A stretch of 63,951 bases of DNA, counting the filler, from Dimargaris cristalligena (taxonomy: Eukaryota), in NCBI GenBank assembly GCA_003614675.1. It is 3 parts of 3 records of this genome, joined end to end, with 100 filler letters (N's around TTAATTAATTAA, not from the genome) between each part and the next. Parts side by side here need not be neighbours in the genome. Positions count along the whole stretch, not along the records: positions 1 to 23,044 come from ML002622.1; 2 more parts are not named here. The stretch is one strand, 5' to 3'. Below, piece by piece: positions 1 through 55,700 of the stretch. The notes under the pieces were generated by a model, which did not search any database, was not told where the DNA came from, and worked only from the letters and a program-made list of their open reading frames with translations. Each line of letters begins with the position of its first letter. Positions within the stretch are counted from its first letter, which is position 1. The position numbers and the translations under genes were made by a program.

Positions 1-385
1 AATTAGCGAACGAGTCGAGTAGGGCCTGGGCCGAATCGACCACGGGAGCGGGCATGCCGGGGGCGGGGAAAGACAGGGTCGATTCGCCCGCCAGACGCGC
101 CAGAGCGGAGTCAACGACCAGAATCACGTTGGAGCGCTGGTCCTCCGCGACATTGGACAGGACGAATGGGGTGACTTCATCCTTGGAGACCTGGAAGAAG
201 GACTTGAGCAGGTCTTCGTTGGCGAAACGCATCTCCTTCAGACCGAGCTGTTTGGCCAGAGCAGAGAGATTAGTCGGAGTGTCGTCCAGGGCCACGATCA
301 TGACGGGGGTCACGGGGGCGGACTTGGCCGTCTTGGGCTTAAGCACCAGGGTCTTGGCCTTTAGGGCTTGGGCGGGAGAGCTCAT
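1..385 (-). CDS. Cytosolic prolyl-tRNA synthetase, N-terminal YbaK/ProX-like domain (partial, runs off the window start)
   Basis: Manual translation from CACC-ATG at 385 is open to position 1: MSSPAQALKAKTLVLKPKTAKSAPVTPVMIVALDDTPTNLSALAKQLGLKEMRFANEDLLKSFFQVSKDEVTPFVL. The KTLVxKPKTAK...PVxxVA...R.A.EDL...V.P pattern matches the fungal ProRS N-terminal domain. Absent from the ORF track because it is truncated. Confidence 0.8.
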   Translation of the reverse strand, partial: MSSPAQALKAKTLVLKPKTAKSAPVTPVMIVALDDTPTNLSALAKQLGLKEMRFANEDLLKSFFQVSKDEVTPFVLSNVAEDQRSNVILVVDSALARLAGESTLSFPAPGMPAPVVDSAQALLDSFAN

Positions 386-6400: not shown

Positions 6401-6703
6401 GTGCCTAATATTGTAATGAGTCAACAACGGATGAGAGAGAGTGGAGTTTGGGCAATGGGTGGAGTATGTATTAGTGGATTTGTCGAGAAATTAGTGGGAT
6501 TTTTCAAGTGGATATCCCGCACAATTAAACCCCGAAAAAGGGGAGCAACTAATACACGGCTATTCCAAAAAAATTAGGGAGGTAGGCGAGGTTATTTGCT
6601 TCTACCCAAGCTCCTCTATATCCACTCTTCGTTCACCCCCCAGCCTTACCCCATTGTTGTATTGTTATACATAACCCCCCCATACTTTTGTTCTTTTTTC
6701 ACC

Positions 6704-8236
6704 ATGGCGTCTACCGATCTCATCTCCCATTTGTTGCAGACTCTCGATCTCAATGGCTCCATCGACGACACCCAAACCCTCCGGCTGCCGGGCCAGACCG
6801 ACCAGCCCCTCGACCAAACGACCATACGGGGTGCCCTATCCAGTCTGCAAAGTCGCCTAATGGTCGATTTCGCCCCTCTCGAACGGGAGGTGCTCCAACT
6901 GACCCCCGAGGGCCAGGCCATGGCCGACACTGGTAGTCACGAAGCCAAGGTGTTCCACGCCGTCCCCGCTGGCCCCGAGGGCATCCTGGTGAAGGACCTC
7001 CAGGCCCAATTAGGCGCCAGTGCCAAGATCGGTCAGGGTAAGGCCCTGGCCCAGAAATGGCTCAAGTTTGCCGATGGCCGTCTCACTCGGCTGGTGGATA
7101 CTATTGTGGACCAGACCCAGGCCGATTTGCGGACCATCCAGCGGACCGGGACCCTGGCCCAGCCCGCGGCGGTCAAAGACCTCCTGAAGCGTAAATTGTG
7201 CACGAAACACAAGACCGTGTCCTACCGTGTTGCTAAAGGTCCCCAATTTGCCCTGTCCGTGACGAAACAGGCCACCGACATCACCGCCGAGTTATTGGCC
7301 AGTGGGGAATGGAAGAACCAGTCCTTCAAGAGTTACAATTTTAACGCCGTGGGTATCCAACCCCCCAGCGGCCATCTGCACCCCCTCATGAAAGTCCGCG
7401 AAGAATTCCGGTCCATTTTCTTTGAAATGGGCTTCACCGAAATGCCCACCAATAAGTTCGTGGAGTCGTCCTTCTGGAATTTCGATGCCCTCTTCCAGCC
7501 CCAGCAGCACCCCGCCCGGGACTTGCAGGATACTTTCTTCCTGAAGGATCCCGTGAGCAGCGCCGACTTGCCCTCGGATTTGGTGGCCAAGGTCGGCCAG
7601 GTGCACGCCGAGGGGAACTACGGTTCCATCGGTTACCGGTACCCCTGGGCCCGCGCCGAAGCCGAGAAATTGCTGCTCCGCACCCATACGACCGCCGTCA
7701 GTTCGTATATGCTGCACCTCCTGGCCCAGCAGAAGCCCTTCCGTCCGGCCAAGTACTTCTCGATTGACCGGGTGTTCCGTAACGAAACCCTGGATGCTAC
7801 CCATCTGGCCGAGTTCCACCAGGTCGAAGGCGTTATTGCCGACCGTAACGTGACTTTAGGTGACTTGATTGGATTCATGGACGTATTCTTCCGTAAAATG
7901 GGCATCACCAACCTGCGCTACAAGCCCGCCTACAACCCCTACACCGAGCCCTCGCTCGAGATCTTCTCCTACCATGAAGGGTTCAAGAAGTGGGTCGAAA
8001 TCGGTAACTCGGGTATGTTCCGCCCTGAAATGTGCCGTCCGCTCGGATTGGACCCTGATGTGCGGGTCATTGCCTGGGGTCTGTCCCTGGAACGGCCGAC
8101 TATGATCAAGTACGGCGTAGATAACATTCGGGAACTTATGGGCCATAAGGTGGACCTGGGCATGATCCAGAACAACCCCATCTGCCGCCTGGATAAGAAG
8201 ATGGGTAAGGAAGTGATGGAAGAGACCCGGGCCTAG
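6704..8236 (+). CDS. FRS2: Cytosolic phenylalanyl-tRNA synthetase alpha subunit (510 aa, intronless)
   Basis: GHLHPL, FWNFDALFQPQQHPARD, LRTHTTAVS, FSIDRVFRNE, YNPYTEPS, EIGNSGMFRPEM and AWGLSLERPTM motifs. ACCATGG start at 6704. Confidence 0.98.
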   Translation: MASTDLISHLLQTLDLNGSIDDTQTLRLPGQTDQPLDQTTIRGALSSLQSRLMVDFAPLEREVLQLTPEGQAMADTGSHEAKVFHAVPAGPEGILVKDLQAQLGASAKIGQGKALAQKWLKFADGRLTRLVDTIVDQTQADLRTIQRTGTLAQPAAVKDLLKRKLCTKHKTVSYRVAKGPQFALSVTKQATDITAELLASGEWKNQSFKSYNFNAVGIQPPSGHLHPLMKVREEFRSIFFEMGFTEMPTNKFVESSFWNFDALFQPQQHPARDLQDTFFLKDPVSSADLPSDLVAKVGQVHAEGNYGSIGYRYPWARAEAEKLLLRTHTTAVSSYMLHLLAQQKPFRPAKYFSIDRVFRNETLDATHLAEFHQVEGVIADRNVTLGDLIGFMDVFFRKMGITNLRYKPAYNPYTEPSLEIFSYHEGFKKWVEIGNSGMFRPEMCRPLGLDPDVRVIAWGLSLERPTMIKYGVDNIRELMGHKVDLGMIQNNPICRLDKKMGKEVMEETRA

Positions 8237-8806
8237 TTATCGTGTTTATCATTGCTTTCGATTCCGGTTGAACTCTGGGTGTGAGAGGGACATGTTAGAA
8301 AACCCCATCTCTTGGAGGAGTATAATGGTTGGTAATTATATATATATATATATATATATATACAATATTATACTAAAAAAATGACATCAATAAACACTTA
8401 TTTCTAATAGATTTAGAGTTGAATGGGGGTATGTATATATGTGGGCCGATTGCATTTATTTAGACGCTTATTGAGAATGCATATAATAGGAAGTGTGTAA
8501 ATATATATAGCCCATGTGTGGGGGGGGGGAGATCCTTTAGCCAAGGTGACTTGGTCGGTGATTTTCAGTGGGATTGGAAGCTTTTTAGAAGGTGGAAGAT
8601 ATTGGATAATTTCTTGCTTGTTGCATTGCATTTCCCTCCCACAACCATTTGTATTCCTAACTACACCCCGATCAGTTCCCCCAACTTTTGGGTTCGTATA
8701 CCTCTTCTTTACCTGATCGTCCATTTATCCAACCCTTGTCGCATTCTTAGTGAATAACCCCCCTTTTATTCTCTATACCCTTTCCGACGAATCCAACTCC
8801 CCCTCC

Positions 8807-10123
8807 ATGAGCTCCCTCCTCGGCCTACCCTTGCGTCCTTGGGGTGCTCTTGCACGCTCCTCTAGACCCCTTCGGCCCGGTTTTCAACTGCAGCCGTGGC
8901 AACGCCCCCATGTGGTACGGTCGTTCGGCAATCGGGTACCCAAAGCCCTGCCGCCTTGTTCGCCTCTGTCGATTCAACGCTTGGTCAGTCCTTCGTCTCC
9001 CCTCGCCTTACCCCGTCGCCTGTCGTCGTCATCGTCGTCCCCCTGGTTCCACCGCTTGAATCAGTCGGTCGCTAAGCCGCTATCCGGTTCAAGTCTCGGG
9101 ACCGGAGGAGCCGTCCCCCGCCAAGCATGGCTTCCTAACCTAAAGCTAATGTTCCGTCTCCAACAGGGCCGGTTCTACCGTCGCCCAGCGTCCATTACCG
9201 GTAAAGGAGCCTACGGTGGTAGTGGTGGCGGGAGTGACTCTTTCCGCCGGGCCCCTGATTCATCCCGGTTCGGGACATCGTTCGAGAAGGCCAAATGGAC
9301 CATCTTTACGATCATTGGGATGAACGGGGCCGTATATTTGCTCTGGGGGTATGCTTCCAACCTCGCTAGGATGGAAGGCAACCTGGAGATGTTCAATATG
9401 ATGAAGCACAATTTTACATCATCGCTGGAAAATTACCGTTGTGGTTACTACTGGAGTGTGTTGACGTCGTCCTTCAGTCACAAGGATTTCCTCCACCTGG
9501 GTGTTAATATGGTGGGCCTGTACTCCTTTGGACTTCCGGTAAGTTCGACTTCACAGTGAAAGGGGGGGGGTTCCCAACTCCATGGTGAATCAGCATCTGT
9601 GTTTTTTATGGTATGCTCCGGCTTCCATCTTCTCCGCACCTAACTCCATGGCGGAGTCTTTACTTTGAGACTAATGCTGCCCCTACGTAATACCTTCCTA
9701 TTCATTTTCCCGGATTCCGATTTTGTTTTTTAGGTGGCCCAACTACTAGGCGTAGCCCCCTTCATGGGCATTTACCTCTTGTCGTGCCTCGCCTCCTCCA
9801 CGGTCAGCCTAGTGGCCAATAAAGTGCGGGAGTCATCGGGCAGCCACCCCATGATTGCACAGCACTCCTCGCTTGGAGCCTCGGGGGGAGTTTTAGGGAT
9901 TATGGCGATTGCGGCCATGGTCTACCCCTCGGCCAAAGTTATGGTGATGTTTGTCATTCCCGTGTCCTGTCGTACGGCGATTTTCGGTTTGTTCGGGTTT
10001 GATGTTTACAACATGTTCACGAACTCAGCCAACATCATTGATTCGGCGGGCCATCTGGGCGGTACGATAACGGGCTTTGGTTTCTGGTGGATCTTCCTGC
10101 GCAAGTTCTTGCGTATCAGCTAG
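8807..10123 (+). CDS. Mitochondrial rhomboid protease (PARL/Pcp1-like)
   Basis: Exons 8807-9538 and 9734-10123; phase-0 intron CCG|GTAAGT...TTTTAG. Arg/Ser-rich presequence, FSHxxxxHLxxNM, catalytic GASG and SAGHLGG. Confidence 0.92.
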
Positions 10124-11956: not shown

Positions 11957-14900
11957 ATGGACGACCTCACCCCCCAGGTAAGCCAGGCGGACCTGCTTTA
12001 CCCTGCCAAGGCCGCATTATTTAACATGCATTTACTTGATATATGCCCATGGTGATACCATCGGGACGCAGCCCCTTTTGAGTCTCTAATTTCCTATACC
12101 CCCCCTTTCCCCATATACTTTATAATATCCAACCGGCATCTTGACATTCTTTCTCATTCTCTCCTTTATTTATTTATTTATTTATTATTGTTGTTATTAT
12201 TAATTGACGTCCCCTCTATCCGATAACCTCCTACTGAACCGTATCAGCTCTTCGAGGAGTGCGGGTACCGTCCACATAGCGAAATCAACCTGACCGAGCA
12301 ACCCGCCTCGCTCGCGTCCCTATTCCCCACCCCACCGGCCCTTCATCCCGCCTACACCCGGGAGCGGCAGAATAGCACCGCGTCTGAAAGTCACCGCGAT
12401 GGTGGAATACCATGCCACCCCGCACAAGGGGGGCGTCGGAGGGCGGATACCGAATCCGGCGAGCCCCGCGGCCCGTCCTCCCAGTTAGATGTCAACACCA
12501 ACGGTTGCGTCTATTCCCAACTGTTCTGGCTCAATCCCTTGCTCCCCAAAGACCACCTCAACTTTTTAGGTTACCATGATGTGGTGGGTCCCGTCTGTAT
12601 ATCCACCCTCCCCAGCGGCGAAAGTGGCTGGTACCACGTTTTCGTTCGGACCCCTTTGAAGTTTTCCTTAGTCCAGGTTCCTCTGTCCCGCCTTGAAGGC
12701 GCGGAGGCCCGGGCCATCCAAAGATTCCTGCCCGCGAAGGCTCCCCACAAATTACTCCTCTATTTCGTACTCGATACCTATTTCCAGCAGGTGGATATCT
12801 CACGGGCCCGGTACCGGGACTGGCAGGCCCAGGCCGAACAGCTCACCGGTGGACTTTCCGGTTTAAGTTTGTTACCTAGCTTCGCCGAGACGGTGGCCTC
12901 CGGACCACCCCACTCAGCGGCGACTAATACTCTAGTGACCCGGGTGGCCATGTCTGACCCCCCCTCTTTCGCCAATGACTCCGCCGACACTTCCCCATCC
13001 CCACCCCCCATGATGCTCCCCGAACACTACGATAACCTTGAAAGTGACCTCGTCCCTAATCCCCAACACCCTAATTCACCCGCGCGGGGTACGTCGCGCG
13101 GGAATACCACCCCTAACAAACATGTGCGGTGGCCCCCCCTTAATGTATGCGGGGGCGACGAAGGGTCCTCCTCCACCGGCTCGACTTCCCAACCGTCCAT
13201 GGCCGTTTCCAATGCCAGTACCCTCTGTGATATGATGGCCGAGTCGACATTGCAACCCGATGAAGCTCCCCCTAAGTCCTCCCTAAACGCCCGGCATCTA
13301 CTCGACCTCGTCCTTGCCATTGAGCCGCTAAACGGGGAAAGTCTCAAACCGGCCCTTCGTAACCTAGAACCCCGCCTCATTCGGCGTTACCACGATGTGG
13401 ACATCGTCGTTTGCCACTCCGAAAATCACTCTTCCTCCCATTTACAGTTTCAGCGGTTCCTCCAGATTCTGGGCCAACCGTTTACCTACCAACAACTCTG
13501 GGCCTCTATCCCACGGTCCAATATGATTCCCGGGGCCGTGAATCCTGTCAACCATCCCCTTCCGGCCGATACATTGGATCCAATAGAAGAAACCTTTTAC
13601 CGCCCCACCAAGGTCCGATCCGCTGCTAGCATGGCCGAGAAACGGGCGAGTATTATCCACGAGCTGGTTTATACCGAGCGCAGCTACGTGCAGAAGTTGC
13701 AGGCCTTAATCGCCGTCTACGTAGTGCCCCTTCGCTCGGCTTCCCGGTCCGGTAAAAGTCAGCTTATTCCGACGTACATGGCCAATGCGATTTTCACCAA
13801 CGTGGAACAGCTGGTGGCGGTTAACGAGGCCTTTCTGGCCGATTTAGAAAAATTGGAACATGAGAATGAGGTGCGGGAGCGGGCAGCGCCCTCATATTAT
13901 GGCCACGGTCATCGCCCTGATGAAACTGGGGTAGGTCACTTAGGGTGTTTCTCGGACGATGGTAACGCTATGGATGGGAACTGGTCCGAACATCAGTCTG
14001 TTGGTCAAATCTGCCTCCACCACGTGAGTAATTTTGACGTGTATAAGCGGTATATTAATGGTTACCAGCACGCCCTCGAGTGCTCCAGCCAATTGGAGAA
14101 GAAGAACGAATCCTACCGTCACTTCCTGGCTCGCAGCCGCGATCATCCGTCGTGCCATAAGTTGGGTATCTCGGACCTTCTTGTTATGCCTGTCCAGCGC
14201 ATTCCCCGCTACACCTTACTTTTTACCGACTTGCTCAAGAACACCCCCGTTGGCCACCCGGACCATTCCGAAATCCAGCGGGCCCTCGACCGAGTTCACG
14301 AAATTGGCCAGCTAGCCGACAATCAAATCACCGATGCCCTCACCGAATTGCATACCATCCACGGACACATCGCGGAATGCCCCGCCAGTTTGATTAGCGC
14401 CTCCCGCCGACTCCTAATTTCGATTGATGCAACCGAACTGGACTTTAGTACCTCCACCATTCTTAAGCACGTCACCTTGTATCTTTTCACCGACCGCATC
14501 ATGATCGTGGAACGGCCTCCCCACATCACGGGTTCCCAGAGCACCAGTAAAAAGAAGGTGTACAAGTTCCTGACCTGGATGGACATTTGCTCCATGGAAG
14601 TTTTGGAGACAACCGGGCCCGGTAGCACCAATCGATTCTATATGCAATGTCACGAAACGCCCTGTTTGGACCCATACTGGGAAGCTAAACCCCTGCACGC
14701 CTTTTCCGTCAGCGGCACGAACGACCGCCAGCGTTGGGTTCAGCGTTTTTATGCCGCCCATGCCCTGCGTCGCTCGGCCATTCTTATGGACGATCCCCGC
14801 AGCCCTGGTATCCCTAACAATAACATGAATTTCCTCAACCCCATGAGTTCTGGTACATCCACCGCTGCTTCGGCCTCTTCGTCTAATCCTAGCACCGCGA

Positions 14901-17436
14901 CGGCCAATCAATCGTCTACCGGGTCGTCGAGTTACCGTAAACACCACAGCAGCCACCACCGCCTCTATCGCCAGTTTCATCAGGACGAGTTTCAAATCGT
15001 GTTCCACGTGCATTATGATGTAAACGTATATCTCGATGCCCGACACAAGTGCGATACCGTTTTCTTGTACACTGATGATCAAACGGGCCATAGCGGTGGA
15101 GGGGCCAATGGTGAAAATGAGTCGGGTGATTGCGATCAGGGCGAGTCCCCCTTCCATCACTTTGTTAATAGCGTCCTAGTCCAGCCCCGCGAAGCCCACC
15201 TTAATCCCCATATGGTCGGTGTCGTTAAATCCCAGCGTGGGCGTATGAGTTTATCCGTTTTTAACCGGTCACTAGCCCCCATGGACTTCGCTTCCAATCC
15301 CCTAGGAGCTGCCGATTCTACCCCTCCCCCAATGCCGCCACCCATGCGATCATCATCGTTGGCCGCCGATGAGGATACTGACTCGCCCCAAACCGCAGCA
15401 ACCGTGGCAGCTGCCCTAATGCGGGCATCCAAACTGTTCGGTAACTCCCCGTCATCCACTGGGTTGAAAATAACGAAGGATAAATTCGATTCGGCTAACC
15501 CGTCGGCAGCTAACTCCAATGTCAATTCGTTTATCGGAGAGGAGGATAAAACGGTCATGTCGTCCATGGTCACTTCCGTGCCCGACGAGGGTGAATTAGT
15601 GCGACCGGCCAAAGCAGTGACCTCGTTGGGTGACTTTGAGCGGGAATTTCTAGATGAAGGTAGGTGAATTTTTATATTGCATACTCGTTGATGGCTGGAT
15701 CATGGTGGTTCCTTTATCATCGATTGTATGATTAACCCCCCTATTGTATATTAGTTTCCTTTCTATTAGATTTTGACCTCACCTTATTTTTATTCACTCT
15801 AATTAATACTAATCAACTTTTATCGTACATCTTTGACTACTTTCTTTTGTGGTTAATACACATTTGTATATTTTCCTGCTGCTTAGTTCTCAACTGCAAG
15901 TCCGATTTACTACACTCGATGGTTCACTTACCAACTCAGCAACTCTATAACCAGCTGTTTCTGGAAAGTCTCTTCGGTCTTCATTTAACACCCGTTCAGT
16001 CGTACGCTTACACCGCCTATACCCCTCTGAAGCGTTCCAATGCCAGCCAGTTCTCCATCGCTAGCCCAAGCTCATTTACGTCGGCCCCTATCCCCATCAC
16101 CCCCTCATCCGCCGCCTTTATTCACCGGTCTCCCTCAACCGGATCCATTACCCAACCGACTACCCCCTCGTCGGCTGCGCTGCTGTCGGCCAAGAACACT
16201 CCTCACCATACCCCGTCGAGTCATGGGGCGGGAGCCCCTGGTACCACCACTTTTATCGTAAATACTAATTCACCACCCGCCTCGGGGTCAGGTAATATAC
16301 TACGGAGAGCACGTAATTGGACCTCCCGTCTCGTTAAGACCAAGAGGTCTAATCCCGCACTAGCCGCCCATCAATCGTTCGCAATGGCTAACGAAGGTCG
16401 TAACATGGAGCCCTCGGGTACTATGACTCCCGCACGTAATGCCGTTTCCATTGACGGCCAGTCCGTTGGTTATCATCCTCAATACCATCCTCATCATCAC
16501 CACCCTCATTATATTCACCACCAGCAGCAGCACCATTTACCACACATGCAACATAGTCAGTCAGCTACCAATGCGGGGATGGACCTGGGTTACATCAAAC
16601 CCACCTCTCTAGGCCTTTCGGGCGCATCTGGCAAACCCTCTGGAAGTATCAGTTCGACCCAGTTAGTCGGTGGTGGCCCCGGAGGCGGTCCTATGGGTAA
16701 ACCGCCGGCACCGGGTTTCATTAGTCGCAATTCATTCGCGTCCATTTCGTCCACGGCTTTGGTCGATCCCATGGGCGGCACTAACGAGAATTCGTCAATG
16801 GTGCGTAGTTCGGTGTATTCATCGGGGGCCGGTCTTAGCGGCATGGGCGGATCGGGTGGTGGCGGCCCTGGGTCTGGTGGTGGTGCCGCAGGGGGCCGTC
16901 CGCTCAGTATATTCGGTTCGCCAGGCGGATCGATCTTTGGCCCCCTCCAGAGTAACGCCTATTTTAGTATCCTGGGCAAATATAAGATTAAGTCAGGTAC
17001 TTCGCGTCGGAATTTGACGGACCGACGACCCAAATCGATGGTCATAGGCAATGAACATGGTAATAACGGTGGTCATGGGGCAGTAGGTGCGACCAACAAC
17101 AGCCCACTAGCTGTAGTTCCCCCCCAGCAGCATGCCAAACCTTATCACTCGGCGGACCCTAATGGGCCTAGCCGCAACAGTCAATCGCCGCATAGTGCGA
17201 GCACCCGGCCGCTCAGCATGGTCATGTCTATGTCTCCGCCGAATTCGACCGATTCCAATACTTCCATCGTCGGTGGCTGTATGACTCGGCCCTCGGCTGG
17301 AATCCCTAAGCCGGAACTGCCTGATATCACCTCGTCGCCTCTTAATTTCCCAATGGAGCTGATGGGCAGTGGGTCTTTTCTCAATAATTCATCCTACCGA
17401 TCCTCGCCCGATAACAAGCCCTTCAGAGACAACTAA
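11957..17436 (+). CDS. Large Rho guanine nucleotide exchange factor (DH-PH) flanked by RapGAP-like segments, with a disordered C-tail
   Basis: Exons 11957-11977, 12248-15659 and 15887-17436; GT-AG introns in phases 0 and 1 join in frame. DH motifs IIHELVYTERSYVQKL, IFTNVEQL and LLVMPVQRIPRYTLLF; PH-like LYLFTDRIMI...RQRWVQRF. Confidence 0.88.
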
Positions 17437-34652: not shown

Positions 34653-34783
34653 AGCAAGCTCGATGGCCTAGCTTTAGAGATTCATCGTGATCCATTGCCA
34701 TATTTCCACTGGGTAGTCCAACCCAACTCAATTTAAACCCTTGCCACTCAGCGACCCAACCCTCCGGTGACCCGCCCTACTTC

Positions 34784-35716
34784 ATGCCGAAGCTCCCTTT
34801 TACCATGTGGCTAAATGTTCTAGTCGCCGTATTGCTCGGCGTCTGGATGGCCACGGCCGCCCTGGAGGACGGGTGCTCGGAGATCCGTGTACGCCGTGAA
34901 ATCCGTCAGCTCAGCCCCCAGGAACGCCGCGATTTTTTCCAGGCCATTAGGGTGCTCAACCAAGGGGCGCCCCCCACTGAATGGGACCAACTGGCCGTTC
35001 TGCACGTCAGCCTCAACCACACCATCCACGGCAACTCTTTCTTCCTACCATTCCACCGTCGCTACGTGTACGAGATGGAAAATCGGATCCGGGAAATGAT
35101 CCCCGGGTTCGCCATACCGTATTGGGACTGGTCGATTGACGCCTACGATGCCGCATCCAGCGAAGTGTTCCGGGGCACCAACGACTGGCTTGGTAGCCAG
35201 GGCCAGTGTCTCTCGGACGGAGCGTTCGCCGGTTTCGATGTCTTCTACTCCCAGGAAGGGATTCGCCCGCACTGTTTATCCCGCCAGTTTAACATGGGGT
35301 CGCAAATTGGCTATCTGTACCCCCCCGCCGCCCTCCACAACACCATGCTGCGTACCGTCACCTACGACCAGTTCCGCTCGTCCCTTGAAATAGGCCCCCA
35401 CGCCACGGTGCACCGCAACTTGGGCGGCGACATGAACACGCTGTCGGCCCCCAACGACCCCATCTTCTGGCTGCACCACTCGTTCATTGACAAACTGTGG
35501 AGCGAGTGGCAGACCCTGCCCGGCCGCTTTTACCTGTACGACGGACCGCCCGGGCCTAACCCCGTGTCCGTCTCCGACCGGGTGCCGTATTTCGGAAATA
35601 CCGTCCGGTCTCTACTGGATATTGGCGACATGTGCTACCGCTATGCCCCCGACGGTGCCGACCTGCCCCGCTCGGCCGGCTCTGGTAACCAAATCGCCTT
35701 TGGGGGCCACGCTTAA
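34784..35716 (+). CDS. Secreted tyrosinase / type-3 di-copper oxidase
   Basis: Signal peptide, RVRREIRQLS, CuA H...HGNSFFLPFHR, IPYWDWS, CuB HATVH...APNDPIFWLHHSFIDKLW, terminal CYRY. Confidence 0.95.
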   Translation: MPKLPFTMWLNVLVAVLLGVWMATAALEDGCSEIRVRREIRQLSPQERRDFFQAIRVLNQGAPPTEWDQLAVLHVSLNHTIHGNSFFLPFHRRYVYEMENRIREMIPGFAIPYWDWSIDAYDAASSEVFRGTNDWLGSQGQCLSDGAFAGFDVFYSQEGIRPHCLSRQFNMGSQIGYLYPPAALHNTMLRTVTYDQFRSSLEIGPHATVHRNLGGDMNTLSAPNDPIFWLHHSFIDKLWSEWQTLPGRFYLYDGPPGPNPVSVSDRVPYFGNTVRSLLDIGDMCYRYAPDGADLPRSAGSGNQIAFGGHA

Positions 35717-47310: not shown

Positions 47311-49389
47311 GAATATCTCATATGGCATTGTAACCCGTTTGCTCTGTTGCCTTTGAATTCATTCCCTATTTACTTTACCTTTTGTTATCTCCTTATCGCA
47401 ATGGTAAGTGAATTCACTCCCTTCATGAATAATGTGCCCTTCCCTCTAGTTGGATTGCTACTCTCAACCATGTAACTGCTGGAAAGCAGACGCGCATTCC
47501 TTAGGAATCGGCGTCCTTTAAAAAAACTGACTAGTCCTCACTAACCCAACAACAACTAGCTGTTTATGTTTATATATATATATATTTCATTTTCCGTCTG
47601 ACGATTTCATTTCCATTACTTTACATTCCATTCCCCACCCTTGCCTCCCCTCAACCTGTAGGCTAACCCCGTTCCCCCGTGTCAGAAACAGGCCTGCGAT
47701 ATCCAGGCCTGTCTTCAAAAACACAACTACCAAGAGTCCCACTGCCAACAGTATCTGGAAAAACTCCGCCAGTGCTGTGCGACGCTCCTGGCCAAGGGGG
47801 GGAGCTCTCCGTGTTGTTCCAAAAAGATTGCGGGTCAGAGTACTTGACTCAATATATTGTTATTTTCCGTACGCGCACCTCCCACCACCCACCCCCTCGT
47901 ACGTCTTTACTCCACAGGGGCCTCCTTCCCTTCACCCTCCAAAAGCGGATTTATATGATGCGCTAACCAACCTTCTGGGGATATATACATTCGAACACTA
48001 AGGTGCTGCAATTCTACCACCTTTTACTCACTCGGCGGTGCTGAGGGGGGGGGTGCTAGGGTTGCTGGCTCCGCATTAAGGCACATGTCATGTAAAAGTG
48101 AGTGGGCGTTGTATTAAATTAATATTACTTTATTCAATGCCTATTGAGTCGTAAACAGACCTCCTCCTGTGGAGTGCCTGGCTTCGTTGATTCGACTAGA
48201 CAATTTGCCTGACATTAACTTGCCCGCTACGCCCAAACAATACCGTTTTATGTATTACACCTATTTTATACAAAATATATTAAACAGTAAACCCGAATTC
48301 AGATTCACCAATTGAATGGTCGGGGGGTAAAACGCCTTGGAGTTGAGACGTAATTACGTCAATGATCTATTCGCTAACCGATTTTGGGGGGAATGGGGTG
48401 CGAATAGAAGTTTTATTGTGATGGTACATTTCTCGTTTGTGTGGTGGCATTGGATTCAAGCGCCTAGCTCAACTACGTCAATAACCAATAACGCCTGGGT
48501 TTATGAGCATTACTCCGACTTAAAGTACGTTACAAGGCAAATAACTGGGTAATAGATTAATTTCCACCATTATAACGCTTACATGTACAGGGGTGATCAC
48601 CCCAGGATGAATGGATCCGGTGAATCGATATGTTTTTATATATACATATATCTATCTATATATGGATTCTACGTACGTGGAGTGGCCCAACCAAGATTAT
48701 GGGGCAGATGGTCAGGAACCCCCTGGTATTAAGCACTCTAATAAGGAGCAATTCCCCCTCCTCCTAGCTGGGACCACCGGCATTCAGCATTCGGACATGC
48801 AGGAGTATAGTATTGGGGGGTGAATGGCTCTACCAAAGGAGATGCATTGGAGCTGGTAGTGTGACCGGGGTGCCGTGTTTTCCGTCCATGACACTACTAA
48901 CGAAATCATGGGAGCGGGGGTGGAGAGGGCAAAGTTAACTGATTACCGGATGAGCATAGTGGGTAGGGAATTATTCGGCGATTTGAAATCCGGTCGAAGC
49001 TAGAAGAGGTACAAGATGGTTAATCTGGAAAAGTATTTAAAGGCGGACATGGCCGGAGTCTAGAATATCTTTATATTGAATACATTATCCCGCCATACCC
49101 ATTTTGTAACAATCAATGCCCTTTATGCCCGGAACTCTCTATGCTCACCTATTCATTAACGCAGTGCCCTGATTTAACTATTGACTAGTGCATCAATCAG
49201 GTCCATCCATTTTATTTTTATATATAGCCCAATATATCTATTACTCGCTGACACTTAAGAAAGGTTCAATCCACTTACCAGAGCTTATAGTGCAATTTCT
49301 TGTCGAAACCACCTGTAATAATCAACCCCTTCCCCGCCGTTACATAACCGCATTCTCCACCACTCGGCCTCCATCCAACTATCATCGCG

Positions 49390-50079
49390 ATGAAGGTTTT
49401 CCGTTTAGTTGTCGTAACCGCCTTAGTCCTGGCCTGCGCCAGCACCGCTCCCGGCGTCGGGGCCTCCGCCAGCACGGGGCTTAACATGGCCAAGATGGTC
49501 GATTTAATCAACCGCGAGCGCGCCAAAGCCCACGTTCCCCCAGTTTCCTATGACCCGACCCTAACCCGGGACGCCAACCACCACTCCATCTACCAAAGCC
49601 GCATCGGTACCATGACGCACGACGACTCCCGGGGCGATACCCAAGAACGCCTCGAACAGGACGGCGTGCCCAGTGTGGCTACGGGCGAAAACGTGGCCTG
49701 GAACCAACGGGACGAACGGGAAGTCATGCGCGATTGGATGAATTCCCCCGGTCATCGGGCAAATATTCTGAACCCCCAGTTCACCCGCTTCGGCGCGTCC
49801 CGCATCAATGGGTACTGGACTCAAGTATTCTCAAAATTCTCCGGGGATGCCTCCGGCTCCGGTTCGGGTTCGGGTTCCGGTCGGCGGCCCAGTCGCTTCG
49901 GGTTGATGACGTCTTATGACCAAGATGATAATGATGATAGCTTCGGGAATTGGACCCATATGGTGGAATTCCGGCGTACCCCCGTGATCAACCTCGATAA
50001 ACGGGAGCCGCGTAACCCGGAATATCCCTGTGAACATCCCCTGGCTGAAGAGGAGCTGGAGTGCTGTGAATGGGAGTGA
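49390..50079 (+). CDS. Secreted CAP/SCP (PR-1-like) protein
   Basis: Signal peptide, LINRERAK, GENVAW, WMNSPGHRANIL and YWTQVF; GS linker and acidic tail. Confidence 0.93.
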   Translation: MKVFRLVVVTALVLACASTAPGVGASASTGLNMAKMVDLINRERAKAHVPPVSYDPTLTRDANHHSIYQSRIGTMTHDDSRGDTQERLEQDGVPSVATGENVAWNQRDEREVMRDWMNSPGHRANILNPQFTRFGASRINGYWTQVFSKFSGDASGSGSGSGSGRRPSRFGLMTSYDQDDNDDSFGNWTHMVEFRRTPVINLDKREPRNPEYPCEHPLAEEELECCEWE

Positions 50080-51061: not shown

Positions 51062-52781
51062 TCAACCCGATTCGGATATGGCTAGTGGTGCACTATCAGT
51101 TTCAATTTCACTGAGGGACCGCTTCCGCCCTGATACATCCGACGGCGGCGAAAACTGGCTAGTCGTTACTAGTAGTGGCTCCTTCTTGTACATCACATTG
51201 AGTCGATTACGGGCCTCGGTGGGTATTTGGAAGCGATGGTCATGTAAAAAGCGGAGGAGCAGGAACCCAGTCATGTACGCGTCAAATCCCGATGAATGCG
51301 AATCGTCCTTCTCCCGAACCGGGGAGGCGACTGGGTCGGCGGAGTTGTCCTCAGCGGACGGTTGGGGTGGTTGAGCGGATGCCGGGAATTCAATCCGCAT
51401 AGGGGTCGACGAAGGAGCCGTGGTGCTGTCCCCGTGCGTTTCGAGGGGGGAGCGGGTTTCTAGATAGAGTCGGGCGTCATGCGAATTTTCGCATTGGTTT
51501 CCTTGTTCGCAATGACCATGATCCTAAACATGGCAGAGCGTTTGGTTTACAATAGGTTAGAGAATAAAAAGGGAGGTTAGAAGAATGGTATAGCAAGAGG
51601 GTGTGTCATAATTAATCCGAAATAAGGCATGGTTATCGGACTATTTCGATAATCAAGTCCTGCATAAAAAACCTAAAGTAAACAGCTAACTGATCGTGAG
51701 TATAAAACCAAGACCAAGAATATAATAATAAAAAAGTCCAACTAACCATATATCCTTGACAGAAGACCACCTGTGGCTCCACTGAGCCATTTGATTCTGG
51801 TGGTGTGACGAGTGCTGGCTTACTAGCCAGGAGCCATTTATAGTATATGAATGAGAGAAAAGTGCGTGGCTCCCTTATAATATAGTCGGCGATATATTTT
51901 GTATCGTAAATGCCGCCGGGAAACATGCGGTCTAAATCACTCAAGAATGTGCCGAGCTGGGCAGGCAACCCGGCGTGAAAACTATGGTACAGGAACACCA
52001 GGTCAAGTAACCCGTTGTGAAGGCCTAGGACCGCCGTACGGTTACTCGCGAGGGCCGTCAAAATCGAGCGGACTAGGGGATTACCCGTCGGATCAATAGC
52101 GGACTTAATAGCCCGTTGGGATTTCTTGGTGCTGGTAGGGAAGGTGGTATTTTTATGCCCATTTTTGGATTTCTTAGACTTCTTCGATTGCTGCTGTGAT
52201 GATACTTGGTAAACGTGGTCACCGGGGTAATAGGGAATGCCGTATTGGAATAGATATCCCAGATCCATTCCGTGATCCCGGAGGAAGCAGAGGGACAGTG
52301 GATCGACGATAAACGAGTCTGCGCGGTACAAGAACAGCGTATAGTTTTGGACGTCATAGCACAAGTCGGCGGGCTTCGCCATAGGTTCGTCGGCATCATT
52401 CGAGTCACCATCTACCGGCGGATCGCGCCACCGTGCCAAGCCTGCGTCCACCTCCAGCGCCGCAAAGGCATTCGCTGCCGAGTCCTCAGCCGTGGGTCCG
52501 TCCGTACGCCGTTTAAAAATGCTAATACCCAGGGAAAACACCGAATGGGTCTGGGCAACATTGCGGTAGGCCCGGTAGCGTTCCTCCATGTCGGCGGCCC
52601 GGCTATTCCAATTGTGGGAGCTTAGCGACGTGTCATCCACCGTGAGTTCCGACCCGATGCGACCGAGTCCGGAAAATTCGAGATCGATGGCCACAACATC
52701 GGCGACCCGCAGGGCTCGCTTCAGTTTCGGTATCTCTTTGGTCATGTTGCGACGGTCAATGGTAGTACAATGGAATGCCAT
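51062..52781 (-). CDS. TOE1: TOE1 (CAF1-family DEDD deadenylase with CCCH finger)
   Basis: Exons 52781-51747 and 51523-51062. AIDLEFSGLG, MEERY, HNGLLDLVFLY, GIYDTKYIA and HSSGFDAYMTG; splicing rebuilds the CCCH finger C-QGYMDHGH-C-EQGNQ-C-ENS-H. Confidence 0.88.
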
Positions 52782-55700
52782 GGTGATGAACGCGACGGGG
52801 TGGAGGGGGGGAGGGGTCAAAAGGCGAGAATTCGCCGAGAATTATATTTAATGATAAAATAATCGACTGGTATACAGGCTAATGGGATTGTAAAGGGGCA
52901 AAGACGAATCAATAGATAAAATCAGATCTCGGCTAAACTACTAGCGCTGGTGTAAAAATAGTCAAAGGTATATAATTCTAGCATGTGAATGGCCGAAGAC
53001 AGCTCTTCTTAAAGTTCCCCGGTCAACTTTAACTCTAGATATTTTAGCTGTTGGTTGTGGGAGTGTGGCACATTGCATCAGTGATTCTGGTTGAGAATAC
53101 CATTGACAGGCAATAGTTGGGCTTTGGAGAATTGGTTTCCCACCGTGGGATTTATTATTGTCATGGTGTTTGGTAATATAGAAGGGATATTGCCATTTGT
53201 TATGGAGGCACTTAATGCCACAATATAATATGCCCTGATAATCTTATCAGGACTGGCTGGAGCAGTGCCAGCCCGGTAGTAAGATATATAATTCTGGGGA
53301 AAACGCACACTCGGCGGGGACGATTCTTGTCTGGTCTTCAGACAGGGACGACTAGGCAACCAGGGATCACTCAGGGATCCTTCTAACACGCGTCGGATAA
53401 GGCACTATGAATGGACTTGGGCCAAATGCTGATGAGGATGCGACAATACCGGGGGCCGGGGAAAACTAATAGCAATCTGTACTGGTGTAAAACTGCTTGC
53501 CTTTATTGAGAGAATACCCGGTGGCTATTTATATAAAACTTAGTAGAAATGAATATAATATAGCAACCTGCTGGTATTAATATAGTAATAGAATACCCAA
53601 TAGGCAGTTGTAGATACTAACTTAAGCTAACTAGAAGAGTAAATGGAATAATGAAGGCCGTCAATCCTGGCTGCTTGGAGATGCAAAGGCTAGGGATACG
53701 CTCCAGCCTTCTATAACTAAGAAATCATCCGAATATAAATATTGACTAAAGAATACTGAATAATGAATAATGCATGTTGGAAAGTGGGACCAAGCCTCTG
53801 AAGTACCCATCTTGGTGGGAAAAGGTGAAGACCAGCCTTCAGTGACGTTCTTCAACTATTCCAAAATAAAAATAGTTTGGCCAGAATATGCTCTTACGGA
53901 TTAAGCAGGCCCAGCTATAACACATTGGACTATAGTCACTTTAGATTCTATTTAGCTAGGTTGGCCAGATGCCCCCCAGTCGAATTACACTTTATAGAGT
54001 AACCGTACAGCAGGGAACGGACTGTATCACTTACCCCTGAATTAGGCCCAATTAGGTGTCTGGTAAGCCCCTGGCCTAATTAGAAAATATCGCTAGAACC
54101 TGATATACTATAAACGCCACTTAAGGGTATTATCTGAGCATGTTTTGAAACATGGAGACAAAGAACCAGGCTACCCAACCAGCCATCTAGCAATAAAATT
54201 CGCCTAGAGCTCTGATGATTTTAAACAACCGGTAATATATAGTTTAGCAATAATCAGTTCGCCTCTAGATATCCCCCAGTTTTCAGTCGGATAATATATA
54301 AAGTGTTGGGACTATTCTGGGCTTCTGTCCTTAAAACCGGTTGACGTGGATTCCCCCTCTCCTATATCCGTCCTCCATGAGCTTCCAAATCCGTACGAAG
54401 CTCCACGTGCATCATAGCCATTCGTCACCCTTCCCCTTTCCCCTGGTGGTGCACTTTGGGAGCCAGGGGAGGTGGCTGTCATCGGCATCATATATAGCAA
54501 AGTAATTGCATTTCAGGTCGTATGGCCAGTAATCATTGGGTGGTCCATCCCTATGCCTAATTTATGGACCTACTTTGACATCCTTCGCCTCCCCTGGCAC
54601 TCCCCCTTCCACTAATTAATATGCAGTAAAATTAATTTAAACGCTGATCCGACCCTTGGTAGAGAAAAGGGCCATTACTTCAATGTTGCTAGTCAACAAG
54701 ACGATATAGTATGTCCCCGTTTTACCCCCCCCTCCCGGTTTACCGAAACTACAAATCTATTGAAAGGGCAGATAGCAGACAGCCTATCAAAACAGTATAG
54801 GTTCTCATTGTGGAAATCCCACTAAATCCAACATTTACAAAGGTTAACCGGAAAGCACTATAAGGGACTAGGAAGAGGGGAGGTGCTGTGCGAGCTAATC
54901 CACCAAACTGGTAAGTCCCCCGAGTAGGCATGCCAAGCAAAGGAGGCGTTCGCTGGGTGGGGGTACAGAGTAGCCTACCAAAATTCACATTAGCCCCGTC
55001 GGTACAGAAATACCTTAATTCGGCCGAAGTACCACAATTGGCGGCCGAGAGAACACCTCTGGTCATAGTGTTCACCTCCGCACCAGATAATAGAAGTATG
55101 TAATAAATGGGGAAGGGAGGCGAGGGGTGGGTGGGTACAGGAGAGAGGCATTATGCCAAGTAGACCGGGGTGGTTATGGACCATTTAGGTGGTCTCGCTT
55201 TCTGGAAACTAGCCAACTTGGTATTCACCCTGTGCTACACCGTCTCCTCCGTATAAACTTTATCCGGTACATCTTTTACGGCTTATTCTATGGTTTCGTA
55301 CGACCCAAATTACAATCGACCGCATGCAACTCAACCTTCCCACTTCCTCCTCTCGATGCTCTTGATGCGACTAGCCGATACTTCCGTATGCTATTGAAGC
55401 GGTAGATAATTTAACCGTTTTATCCCAACTGACCTTTATAAGATCCAGGCTAGTCACTGAAAATAAACCCCAATTTTGTCAGTATAATAGTCTTGGGCAC
55501 GGTGGATACGCGTGGGTTGTATTTCTCTTATTGTTGCTCTATAAGATGAAGGAAAACAATACGCGAATGCGAACTTTTGACATTTGACATTCACGATAGA
55601 CATTAACGAGTATCAGTCACACCCACCGAGTAGCAGCAGCAGTCGCCTTCACTTTGGTATGAATGAGGACGGGAGGGAGAGAAGCCTTCTTCCCTTTGCT

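Follow-up and report, generated by a model that had tools for sequence, protein, structure and literature searches.

How is a Rho exchange-factor module accommodated in a protein whose flanking sequences recall a GTPase-activating protein (GAP) for Rap? The question is raised by a gene at positions 11957 to 17436 of a 63,951-nucleotide stretch of DNA from Dimargaris cristalligena (assembly GCA_003614675.1). This stretch, here called the window, consists of three genome parts joined by filler, and the gene lies in the first of them (positions 1 to 23,044, record ML002622.1). A first-pass annotation had read it as a RhoGEF (guanine nucleotide exchange factor) DH-PH module inserted into a split, catalytically dead RapGAP domain. 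We find that the sequence upstream of the DH domain (the N flank) is homologous to the dimerisation domain of Rap1GAP-type proteins and to the first strand and helix of their GAP core. This RapGAP-derived module breaks off in mid-domain and is fused to the DH-PH module, an arrangement that is conserved and lineage-restricted. The sequence that follows the PH domain (the C flank) is considered separately below. Residue numbers refer to P0001, the translation of the second of three exons.

The N flank derives from a Rap1GAP-type protein

How far does the RapGAP homology reach into the protein? It covers two adjoining segments:

12494-13384, + strand: homolog of the Rap-GAP dimerisation domain (P0001 83-379), with a poorly conserved, low-confidence linker at about 201-343
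13385-13483, + strand: first strand and helix of the RapGAP catalytic core (YHDVDIVVC ... FQRFLQILGQPF), where the RapGAP homology ends

Reference RapGAPs were collected by scanning metagenome contigs with a degenerate catalytic-helix pattern, keeping matches with an open frame of at least 170 residues upstream and at least 110 residues downstream of the motif. Pfam finds Rap_GAP in all of the 33 matches retained (E 1e-51 to 1e-66) and Rap-GAP_dimer also in 15. When an 11-row alignment of the N flank was compared by hhalign with 13 Rap1GAP-type references, it matched over 62 columns (Prob 94.4, E 8.5e-8), pairing YSQLFWLNPLLPKDHLNFLGY..VGPVCIS...YHVFVRT with Y..HF.G.EH.N..G.DE.LGPV.LS...R.ILR of the references. 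A second query, a profile of 13 family sequences whose master was the compact Calcarisporiella protein, matched the 33 RapGAPs over 138 columns (Prob 96.6, E 5.2e-10), and its score of 74.3 compares with a maximum of 19.0 among 50 column shuffles. The two conserved blocks of the flank match separately as well: block 1 alone aligns to template positions 131-195 (score 56.8, E 5.9e-8) and block 2 alone to 214-278 (score 29.7, E 3.7e-4, none of 50 shuffles above 18.4). The whole match spans template positions 131-278. On this template piece the Pfam assignments are 132-236 for Rap-GAP_dimer and 257 onward for Rap_GAP, so that the homology takes in the dimerisation domain and, within the GAP core, the KFGVxY strand and FLExLG helix. 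Its end lies about 22 positions past the start of the Pfam Rap_GAP model, which corresponds in the window to FQRFLQILGQPF (13448-13483), and a short linker of about 50 residues then leads to the start of the DH domain at 13652. Residues D385 and F404 of the leftover core strand and helix are invariant in 16 family sequences. The parallels to the N-terminal half of Rap1GAP that the first-pass annotation had drawn are thereby borne out, register included.

Structure comparison leads to the same protein. The N flank was folded alone from the 11-row family alignment; its mean predicted local confidence (pLDDT) is 56.6, with block 1 at about 76-94. The model runs from a helix through four consecutive strands and more helices into the disordered linker, and ends with a helix-strand-helix unit. 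In a Foldseek search of 350,542 PDB chains, Rap1GAP chains (3brw, 1srq) occupy ranks 1-6 (E 5.3e-3 to 1.8e-2, prob 0.90-0.99), and rank 7 is far weaker (E 0.2, prob 0.21). VIA-align also puts Rap1GAP first, with a match span of chain 79/87..188. The dimerisation domain predicts that the protein would form a dimer.

The Pfam Rap families do not match the window protein even at E<=10, and in nine relatives PF21022 (Rap-GAP_dimer) appears at the same place below threshold (E 0.007-0.25; 12-17 bits, cut-off 27). In the ESM Atlas the N flank of P0003, the deposited D. cristalligena protein, has no usable match, and that of the compact Calcarisporiella protein P0021 reaches 0.75-0.77 at best, under the lead level.

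The DH-PH module

A DH-PH module is present between the two flanks, as the first-pass annotation had stated:

13652-14305, + strand: DH (RhoGEF) domain, matched by Pfam RhoGEF, with a species-specific low-confidence loop at P0001 552-580
14396-14785, + strand: PH domain of ECT2/Bud3 type with a C-terminal helix (AlphaFold strands at 722-801)

Pfam RhoGEF matches residues 469-686 (E 9.1e-46) at profile positions 1-175 of 180, so that the DH domain is full-length, and ECT2_PH is found below threshold at 717-781 (E 0.003). Among solved structures ECT2 is the closest by sequence (E 1.6e-23; next best 1.6e-18). The full-length AlphaFold model has a mean pLDDT of 52.3, with the DH-PH part mostly at 70-91; Foldseek with this model returns DH-PH structures, ECT2 (6l30) first (E 5.3e-13), and VIA alignments to 6l30_A, 7rx9_A and 3mpx_A cover residues 458..806. 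These full-length searches list DH-PH chains only and are uninformative on the flanks. The intact DH domain, accompanied by its ECT2/Bud3-like PH domain, should be the catalytic part of the protein.

Within the DH domain, a loop of about 30 residues at 13901-13987 (SYYGHGHRPDETGVGHLG...NWSEHQS) is modelled with low confidence, and orthologs are variable or gapped there.

A family confined to a few fungal lineages

Is this arrangement a peculiarity of one genome? A phmmer search with the N flank (338 residues) over 1.84 billion representatives, at E<=0.001, matched 12 proteins, 11 of which are members of one family. They come from Dimargaritales, Kickxellales (Coemansia, Spiromyces), Zoopagales (Syncephalis, Thamnocephalis) and Calcarisporiella thermophila, that is, from Zoopagomycota plus Calcarisporiella. 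Pfam RhoGEF lies downstream of the N block in nine of the 11; the remaining two, 505 and 186 residues long, are fragments that NCBI labels 'partial'. Orthologs from Dimargaritales, Kickxellales, Zoopagales and Calcarisporiella share the domain order. Identity is 54-57% with orthologs from Tieghemiomyces, Dispira and Dimargaris verticillata and 34-41% with those from Coemansia and Kickxella; the Thamnocephalis and Calcarisporiella homologs are 898 and 1187 residues long. The twelfth match, P0023 (E 5e-4), aligns in five short stretches, has no DH domain and was dropped as a low-complexity match.

Neither a canonical RapGAP nor an unsplit form of the family is among the 12 matches, and word-indexed searches for bridging or unsplit relatives with P0021 680-830 and 61-252 returned P0021 itself only. 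In the databases, family members are named 'hypothetical protein' or 'DH domain-containing protein', and the precomputed Pfam annotation gives PF00621 alone. Database annotation accordingly displays only the DH domain: Pfam and HMMER miss the RapGAP ancestry, which profile-profile and fold comparison alone reveal.

Kickxellales members (P0008-P0011, P0016) have an extra conserved segment between the PH domain and the C flank (RILYPAE...YGEHGYWFPQSLHEF...FFEFLNTAWERS) that is missing in Dimargaritales and in the compact homologs.

Is the C flank the remainder of the RapGAP core?

If the DH-PH module interrupts a RapGAP domain, the rest of the GAP core should follow the PH domain, and both flanks together would form the mixed alpha/beta RapGAP core with its seven-stranded sheet. 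Two segments come into question:

14957-15268, + strand: C-flank core, candidate RapGAP remainder, with predicted strands and helices and ARHKCD at the catalytic-helix position
15626-15659, + strand: start of a conserved terminal helix, DFEREFLDE (AlphaFold helix 1127-1136), conserved in Dimargaritales and continued in exon 3

The full-length AlphaFold model has strands at 904-910, 916-922, 937-943, 989-995 and 1000-1006 and helices at 925-929 and 968-977, all at a pLDDT of about 35-68. An alignment of the C flank (A4) from three Dimargaritales, Syncephalis, Calcarisporiella and Thamnocephalis gave one hhalign alignment with the 13 Rap1GAP-type references, over 83 columns (score 20.5, E 0.097, Prob 0.6). 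It pairs LYRQF..EFQIVFHVHY with VY..F..REMMLHVST, CDTVFLYTDD with GNDIVAIVFQE, and PHMVGVVKSQRGRMSLSVFNR with HAYIVVQ...YKVSVAAR. Against the C half of the 33-sequence profile, a 100-column C core scored 17.1 (E 0.038) in the register of the A4 alignment, which 2 of 100 shuffles reached, and a sub-profile of Dimargaritales only scored 20.2 (E 0.0093), which 1 of 60 shuffles reached. The best alignments pair QIVFHVHY with EIMFHVST, and the order of motifs is collinear with the rest of the RapGAP core. Several query designs were tried, and the best P values must be discounted for multiple testing. In the order and register of its motifs, the C flank recalls the second half of the RapGAP core, at marginal strength. 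Of the parallels previously drawn for this half, the register has held and the significance is marginal (E 0.0093-0.097), and the further parallel with the terminal helix across the last intron was not sustained, DFEREFLDE having no significant RapGAP match.

A series of other results weighs against a RapGAP origin of the C flank. Compared with the C half, a sub-profile of three compact homologs found as its best match the hairpin at the expected place, at a score of 12.0 that 20 of 60 shuffles reached, and the hairpin segment alone stands at chance level, 45 of 100 shuffles reaching the real score. Joining block 2 to the C flank gained nothing over block 2 itself on the trimmed template (real score 20.1, 60 shuffles 20.0-25.9). 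Pfam Rap_GAP (PF02145, the Rap/Ran-GAP class of Rap1GAP, TSC2 and RalGAP) is absent at E<=10 from the whole exon-2 protein, from either flank and from exon 3, which has no match to any Pfam family at that threshold, and it is absent at E<=1 from 17 relatives (curated cut-off 27 bits); as a positive control, the same family was recovered in 33 of 33 references at E 1e-51 or better. Among PDB sequences, no RapGAP was found by phmmer with each flank and with P0019, nor by hmmsearch with the flank profiles A3 (N) and A4 (C), and a home-built hidden Markov model of the RapGAP core gave negative scores only with 13 family proteins.

In the Calcarisporiella protein P0021 the C flank begins YRQLGGLDVYANIY (at about 688-700) and contains the string GGLDV. 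This recalls the invariant GGLD of RapGAPs (G288-L289-D290 are invariant in the references), and the resemblance may be chance or mark a deleted loop. The string was considered as a RapGAP GGLD and not used: hhalign aligns the stretch to the EIMFHV strand and not to G288-L289-D290.

The catalytic asparagine

Could the candidate core still be active? According to two studies, the catalytic helix reads K285-R286-..-G289-N290 in Rap1GAP and K1638RHLGN1643 in TSC2, and its Asn thumb is essential (PMC2265111, PMC7804450). Among the 13 Rap1GAP-type references K331, R332, H333, G335, N336 and D337 are invariant. The window reads A-R-H-K-C-D-T-V-F at 15038-15064 and retains the R-H of KRH[IL]GN. At the thumb column it has D in the register of the A4 alignment and in a gap-free pairing of ARHKCD with KRH[IL]GN, and C in the 13-sequence family alignment and with the Dimargaritales sub-profile. 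The earlier claim that the thumb is lost, HKCD standing for GND, agrees with the lack of Asn in every register. Across seven members (the six of A4 plus Tieghemiomyces), the two candidate columns read D/D/D/D/D/H/N and C/C/S/S/S/N/S, so that no Asn is conserved at either; Thamnocephalis has one at one column and Calcarisporiella one at the neighbouring column. In addition, the 33 RapGAP references have a catalytic helix that is longer than the candidate by 2-4 residues. If the C flank is RapGAP-derived, it is very probably catalytically dead in the window protein.

Weighing the alternatives

We envision that the locus encodes a Dbl-family exchange factor for Rho or Cdc42, whose ECT2/Bud3-like DH-PH module would reside within a degenerate Rap1GAP-type module. 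The DH-PH module would be a nested insertion in a loop of this pseudo-RapGAP domain, and the strand-rich C flank after the PH domain would be the diverged rest of the GAP core, with ARHKCD as a shortened catalytic helix in place of KRH[IL]GN. We lean slightly toward this nested arrangement, in which the C flank is the diverged RapGAP remainder. The RapGAP-derived part would no longer hydrolyse, because it lacks the Asn thumb, and the DH domain would be the sole catalytic activity.

The most serious alternative holds that an N-terminal RapGAP fragment became fused to a DH-PH module while the remaining core disappeared; the C flank would then be unrelated, lineage-specific and partly disordered, and would resemble RapGAPs by chance. 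Such a fusion is quite possible, though less probable than nesting. It would fit the lack of a significant C-flank match in most tests, the low AlphaFold confidence of this flank and its strong divergence between orders; moreover, its best P values (0.01-0.04) were obtained after several query designs, and multiple testing weakens them. It fits less well with two observations: that the leftover core strand and helix have been conserved throughout the family, down to the invariant D385 and F404, since a lone strand would need partners, and that every significant or near-significant alignment of the C flank falls in the predicted collinear register. A further point against simple fusion comes from DVDIVVC (P0001 381-388): only the full-length model shows this core strand, and the stretch is unstructured, with a pLDDT below 50, when the N flank is modelled by itself; this hints at, and would fit, pairing with downstream strands. 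A two-chain ESMFold2 prediction of N flank and C flank, made without family alignments, scored 0.00 with a partner pLDDT below 50 and weighs neither for nor against co-folding.

We regard it as very unlikely that the split RapGAP is still an active GAP in some members, which would make them bifunctional Rap/Rheb-GAPs and Rho-GEFs. The Asn residues at or next to the candidate thumb column in Thamnocephalis and Calcarisporiella, and the R-H that the window protein shares with KRH[IL]GN, would fit such a protein, but in the window protein the thumb is D or C whichever register is taken, no Asn extends through the family, the catalytic helix falls 2-4 residues short of its length in 33 RapGAPs, and N290 and N1643 are described as essential in the Rap1GAP and TSC2 studies (PMC2265111, PMC7804450). 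That the flanks have no RapGAP ancestry at all, being family-specific sequences with coincidental motif parallels, is scarcely credible and for the N flank nearly refuted, given its E value of 5e-10 with none of 50 shuffles above 19, the separate matches of two blocks to the expected template regions, the first rank of Rap1GAP in two different structure searches, and the sub-threshold PF21022 matches at the same place in nine relatives.

What might a RapGAP-derived module do for the exchange factor? In the nested arrangement it may act as a scaffold for dimerisation and perhaps provide a docking site at which a Rap/Rsr1/Rheb-like GTPase would position or gate the embedded GEF. Both the docking of such a GTPase and the coupling to Rap, Bud1 or Rheb that the first-pass annotation had suggested are speculation. 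A more specific version, in which the flanks form one pseudo-RapGAP that binds the GTP form of such a GTPase without hydrolysing it, and binding or dimerisation allosterically opens a DH-PH module carried on a surface loop, seems to us unlikely. If such a relay were true, it would constitute a single-chain Rap-to-Rho relay with one regulator nested in a dead copy of another.

Comparison with known regulators

Regulators of small GTPases usually carry their domains in tandem; here a RhoGEF follows a RapGAP module that is broken in mid-domain, and is perhaps nested in it. Rap1GAP (1SRQ, 3BRW) and other proteins with Rap-GAP_dimer and Rap_GAP share the dimerisation domain and the first core strand and helix with the window protein, and Rap1GAP is its top structural match. 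Unlike Rap1GAP, the window protein has a DH-PH module of about 400 residues after the FLxxLG helix and a short linker, an insertion of about 140 residues (the linker) in its dimerisation domain, no Pfam Rap_GAP match, no Asn thumb and a shortened catalytic helix, and homology of its C half is not demonstrable. The dimerisation domain-GAP unit of TSC2 (tuberin) is alike in that its Asn-thumb GAP core is preceded by a dimerisation domain built of flanking helices and a four-stranded antiparallel sheet (PMC7804450); the N-flank model has such a sheet with flanking helices. Unlike TSC2, the window protein has no HEAT region and no KRHLGN helix, and its core would be interrupted by the DH-PH module; TSC2 is not among the fold matches listed for the N flank.

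On the exchange-factor side, the BRCT domains of ECT2 (6L30) are missing, and RapGAP-derived flanks stand in their place. Bud3-type GEFs, with the order Bud3_N, DH, PH_BUD3_C and Nod1 as in P0014, have a distantly similar DH-PH module (P0014, E 3.6e-5), and three Kickxellales members give weak PH_BUD3_C matches. Bud3_N (PF12015) is found in no family member at E<=1, and the N flank compared with P0014 reaches an hhalign Prob of 0.2. BCR and ABR unite a RhoGEF DH-PH module and a RhoGAP domain in a single chain; BCR has them in tandem, and its RhoGAP is active. By contrast, the window protein has a degenerate GAP-type domain of the Rap class that seems to wrap around the GEF.

A full-text literature search turned up no paper on a nested or fused RapGAP-RhoGEF architecture, although supplementary tables could list such proteins, and in the text covered of a survey of the Dbl family (PMC5499878) the word 'RapGAP' occurs 0 times and none of the DH partner domains named is a RapGAP. 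As far as this search reaches, and in line with the novelty claimed earlier, the protein represents a new domain architecture built from known kinds of domain. If it is nested, it would be a natural case of domain insertion giving a pseudo-enzyme scaffold around an active enzyme, and it would suggest a direct signalling link from Rap/Rsr1 to Rho in early-diverging fungi. Unless an allosteric relay proves real, the broader impact stays moderate, for these proteins form a small family from little-studied fungi and are known from sequence and models alone.

Gene structure

Does the gene model sustain this domain order? Exon-by-exon translation of the window gives a single gene on the + strand with three exons and a stop codon in exon 3:

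11957-11977, + strand: exon 1, encoding MDDLTPQ, the N-terminus of the deposited protein P0003, followed by a GT donor
12248-15659, + strand: exon 2, one open frame of 1137 codons with the N flank, the DH-PH module and most of the C flank
15660-15886, + strand: intron 2, GTAGGT ... TTAG, AT-rich, with the same junction in P0003 and P0005-P0007
15887-17436, + strand: exon 3, with the end of the conserved helices (VLNCKSDLL...QQLYNQLFLESLFG, to about 15994), a long low-complexity tail and the stop codon

The DH-PH module and both flanks thus lie within one continuous exon, and BLASTP gives 100% identity between P0001 and P0003, a 'hypothetical protein' of 1628 residues deposited for Dimargaris cristalligena. 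Both splice junctions are also used in P0003. The junction FEREFLDE|VLNCK, with its donor after 15659 and acceptor before 15887, recurs in three orthologs (P0005-P0007), which upholds the splicing across the last intron as first read. All 14 peptides quoted in the first-pass annotation occur in the exon-2 translation at the coordinates claimed, among them VYSQLF (12509-12526), KDHLNFLG (12548-12571), FQRFLQILGQ (13448-13477), LYRQFHQDEFQIVFHV (14963-15010), ARHKCDTVFLY (15038-15070) and FEREFLDE (15635-15658).

A few details deserve mention. In the disordered N-flank linker, at about 13020-13040, the window has EHYDNL and P0003 has EHHDNL, by eye the sole residue difference, so that the window must stem from a different isolate or assembly of this species. 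At about 16459-16557 in exon 3, the window encodes in open frame a His/Gln-rich stretch (QSVGYHPQYHPHHHHPHYIHHQQQHHLPHMQ...) that P0003, which reads ...AVSIDGHQSATNAG, does not have; the cause is an additional intron in the annotation or else a difference between strains. Intron 1 is AT-rich at 12160-12215, with a short run of TTTA/TTAT repeats, whereas the exons are GC-rich. The Tieghemiomyces parasiticus protein P0004 (1173 residues) ends with ...DFEREFLEE, exactly at the end of exon 2 of the window gene, and its last exon was probably missed in annotation.

Neighbouring genes

Among the 12 long frames scanned in the window, no RapGAP, Ras-family or Rho-family gene was seen; the matches are to ordinary eukaryotic families:

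6578-8233, + strand: phenylalanyl-tRNA synthetase alpha core frame, family match
8717-9556, + strand: rhomboid frame, family match
34691-35713, + strand: tyrosinase frame, family match
49348-50076, + strand: CAP/cysteine-rich secretory protein frame, family match
51636-52841, - strand: CAF1 ribonuclease frame, family match

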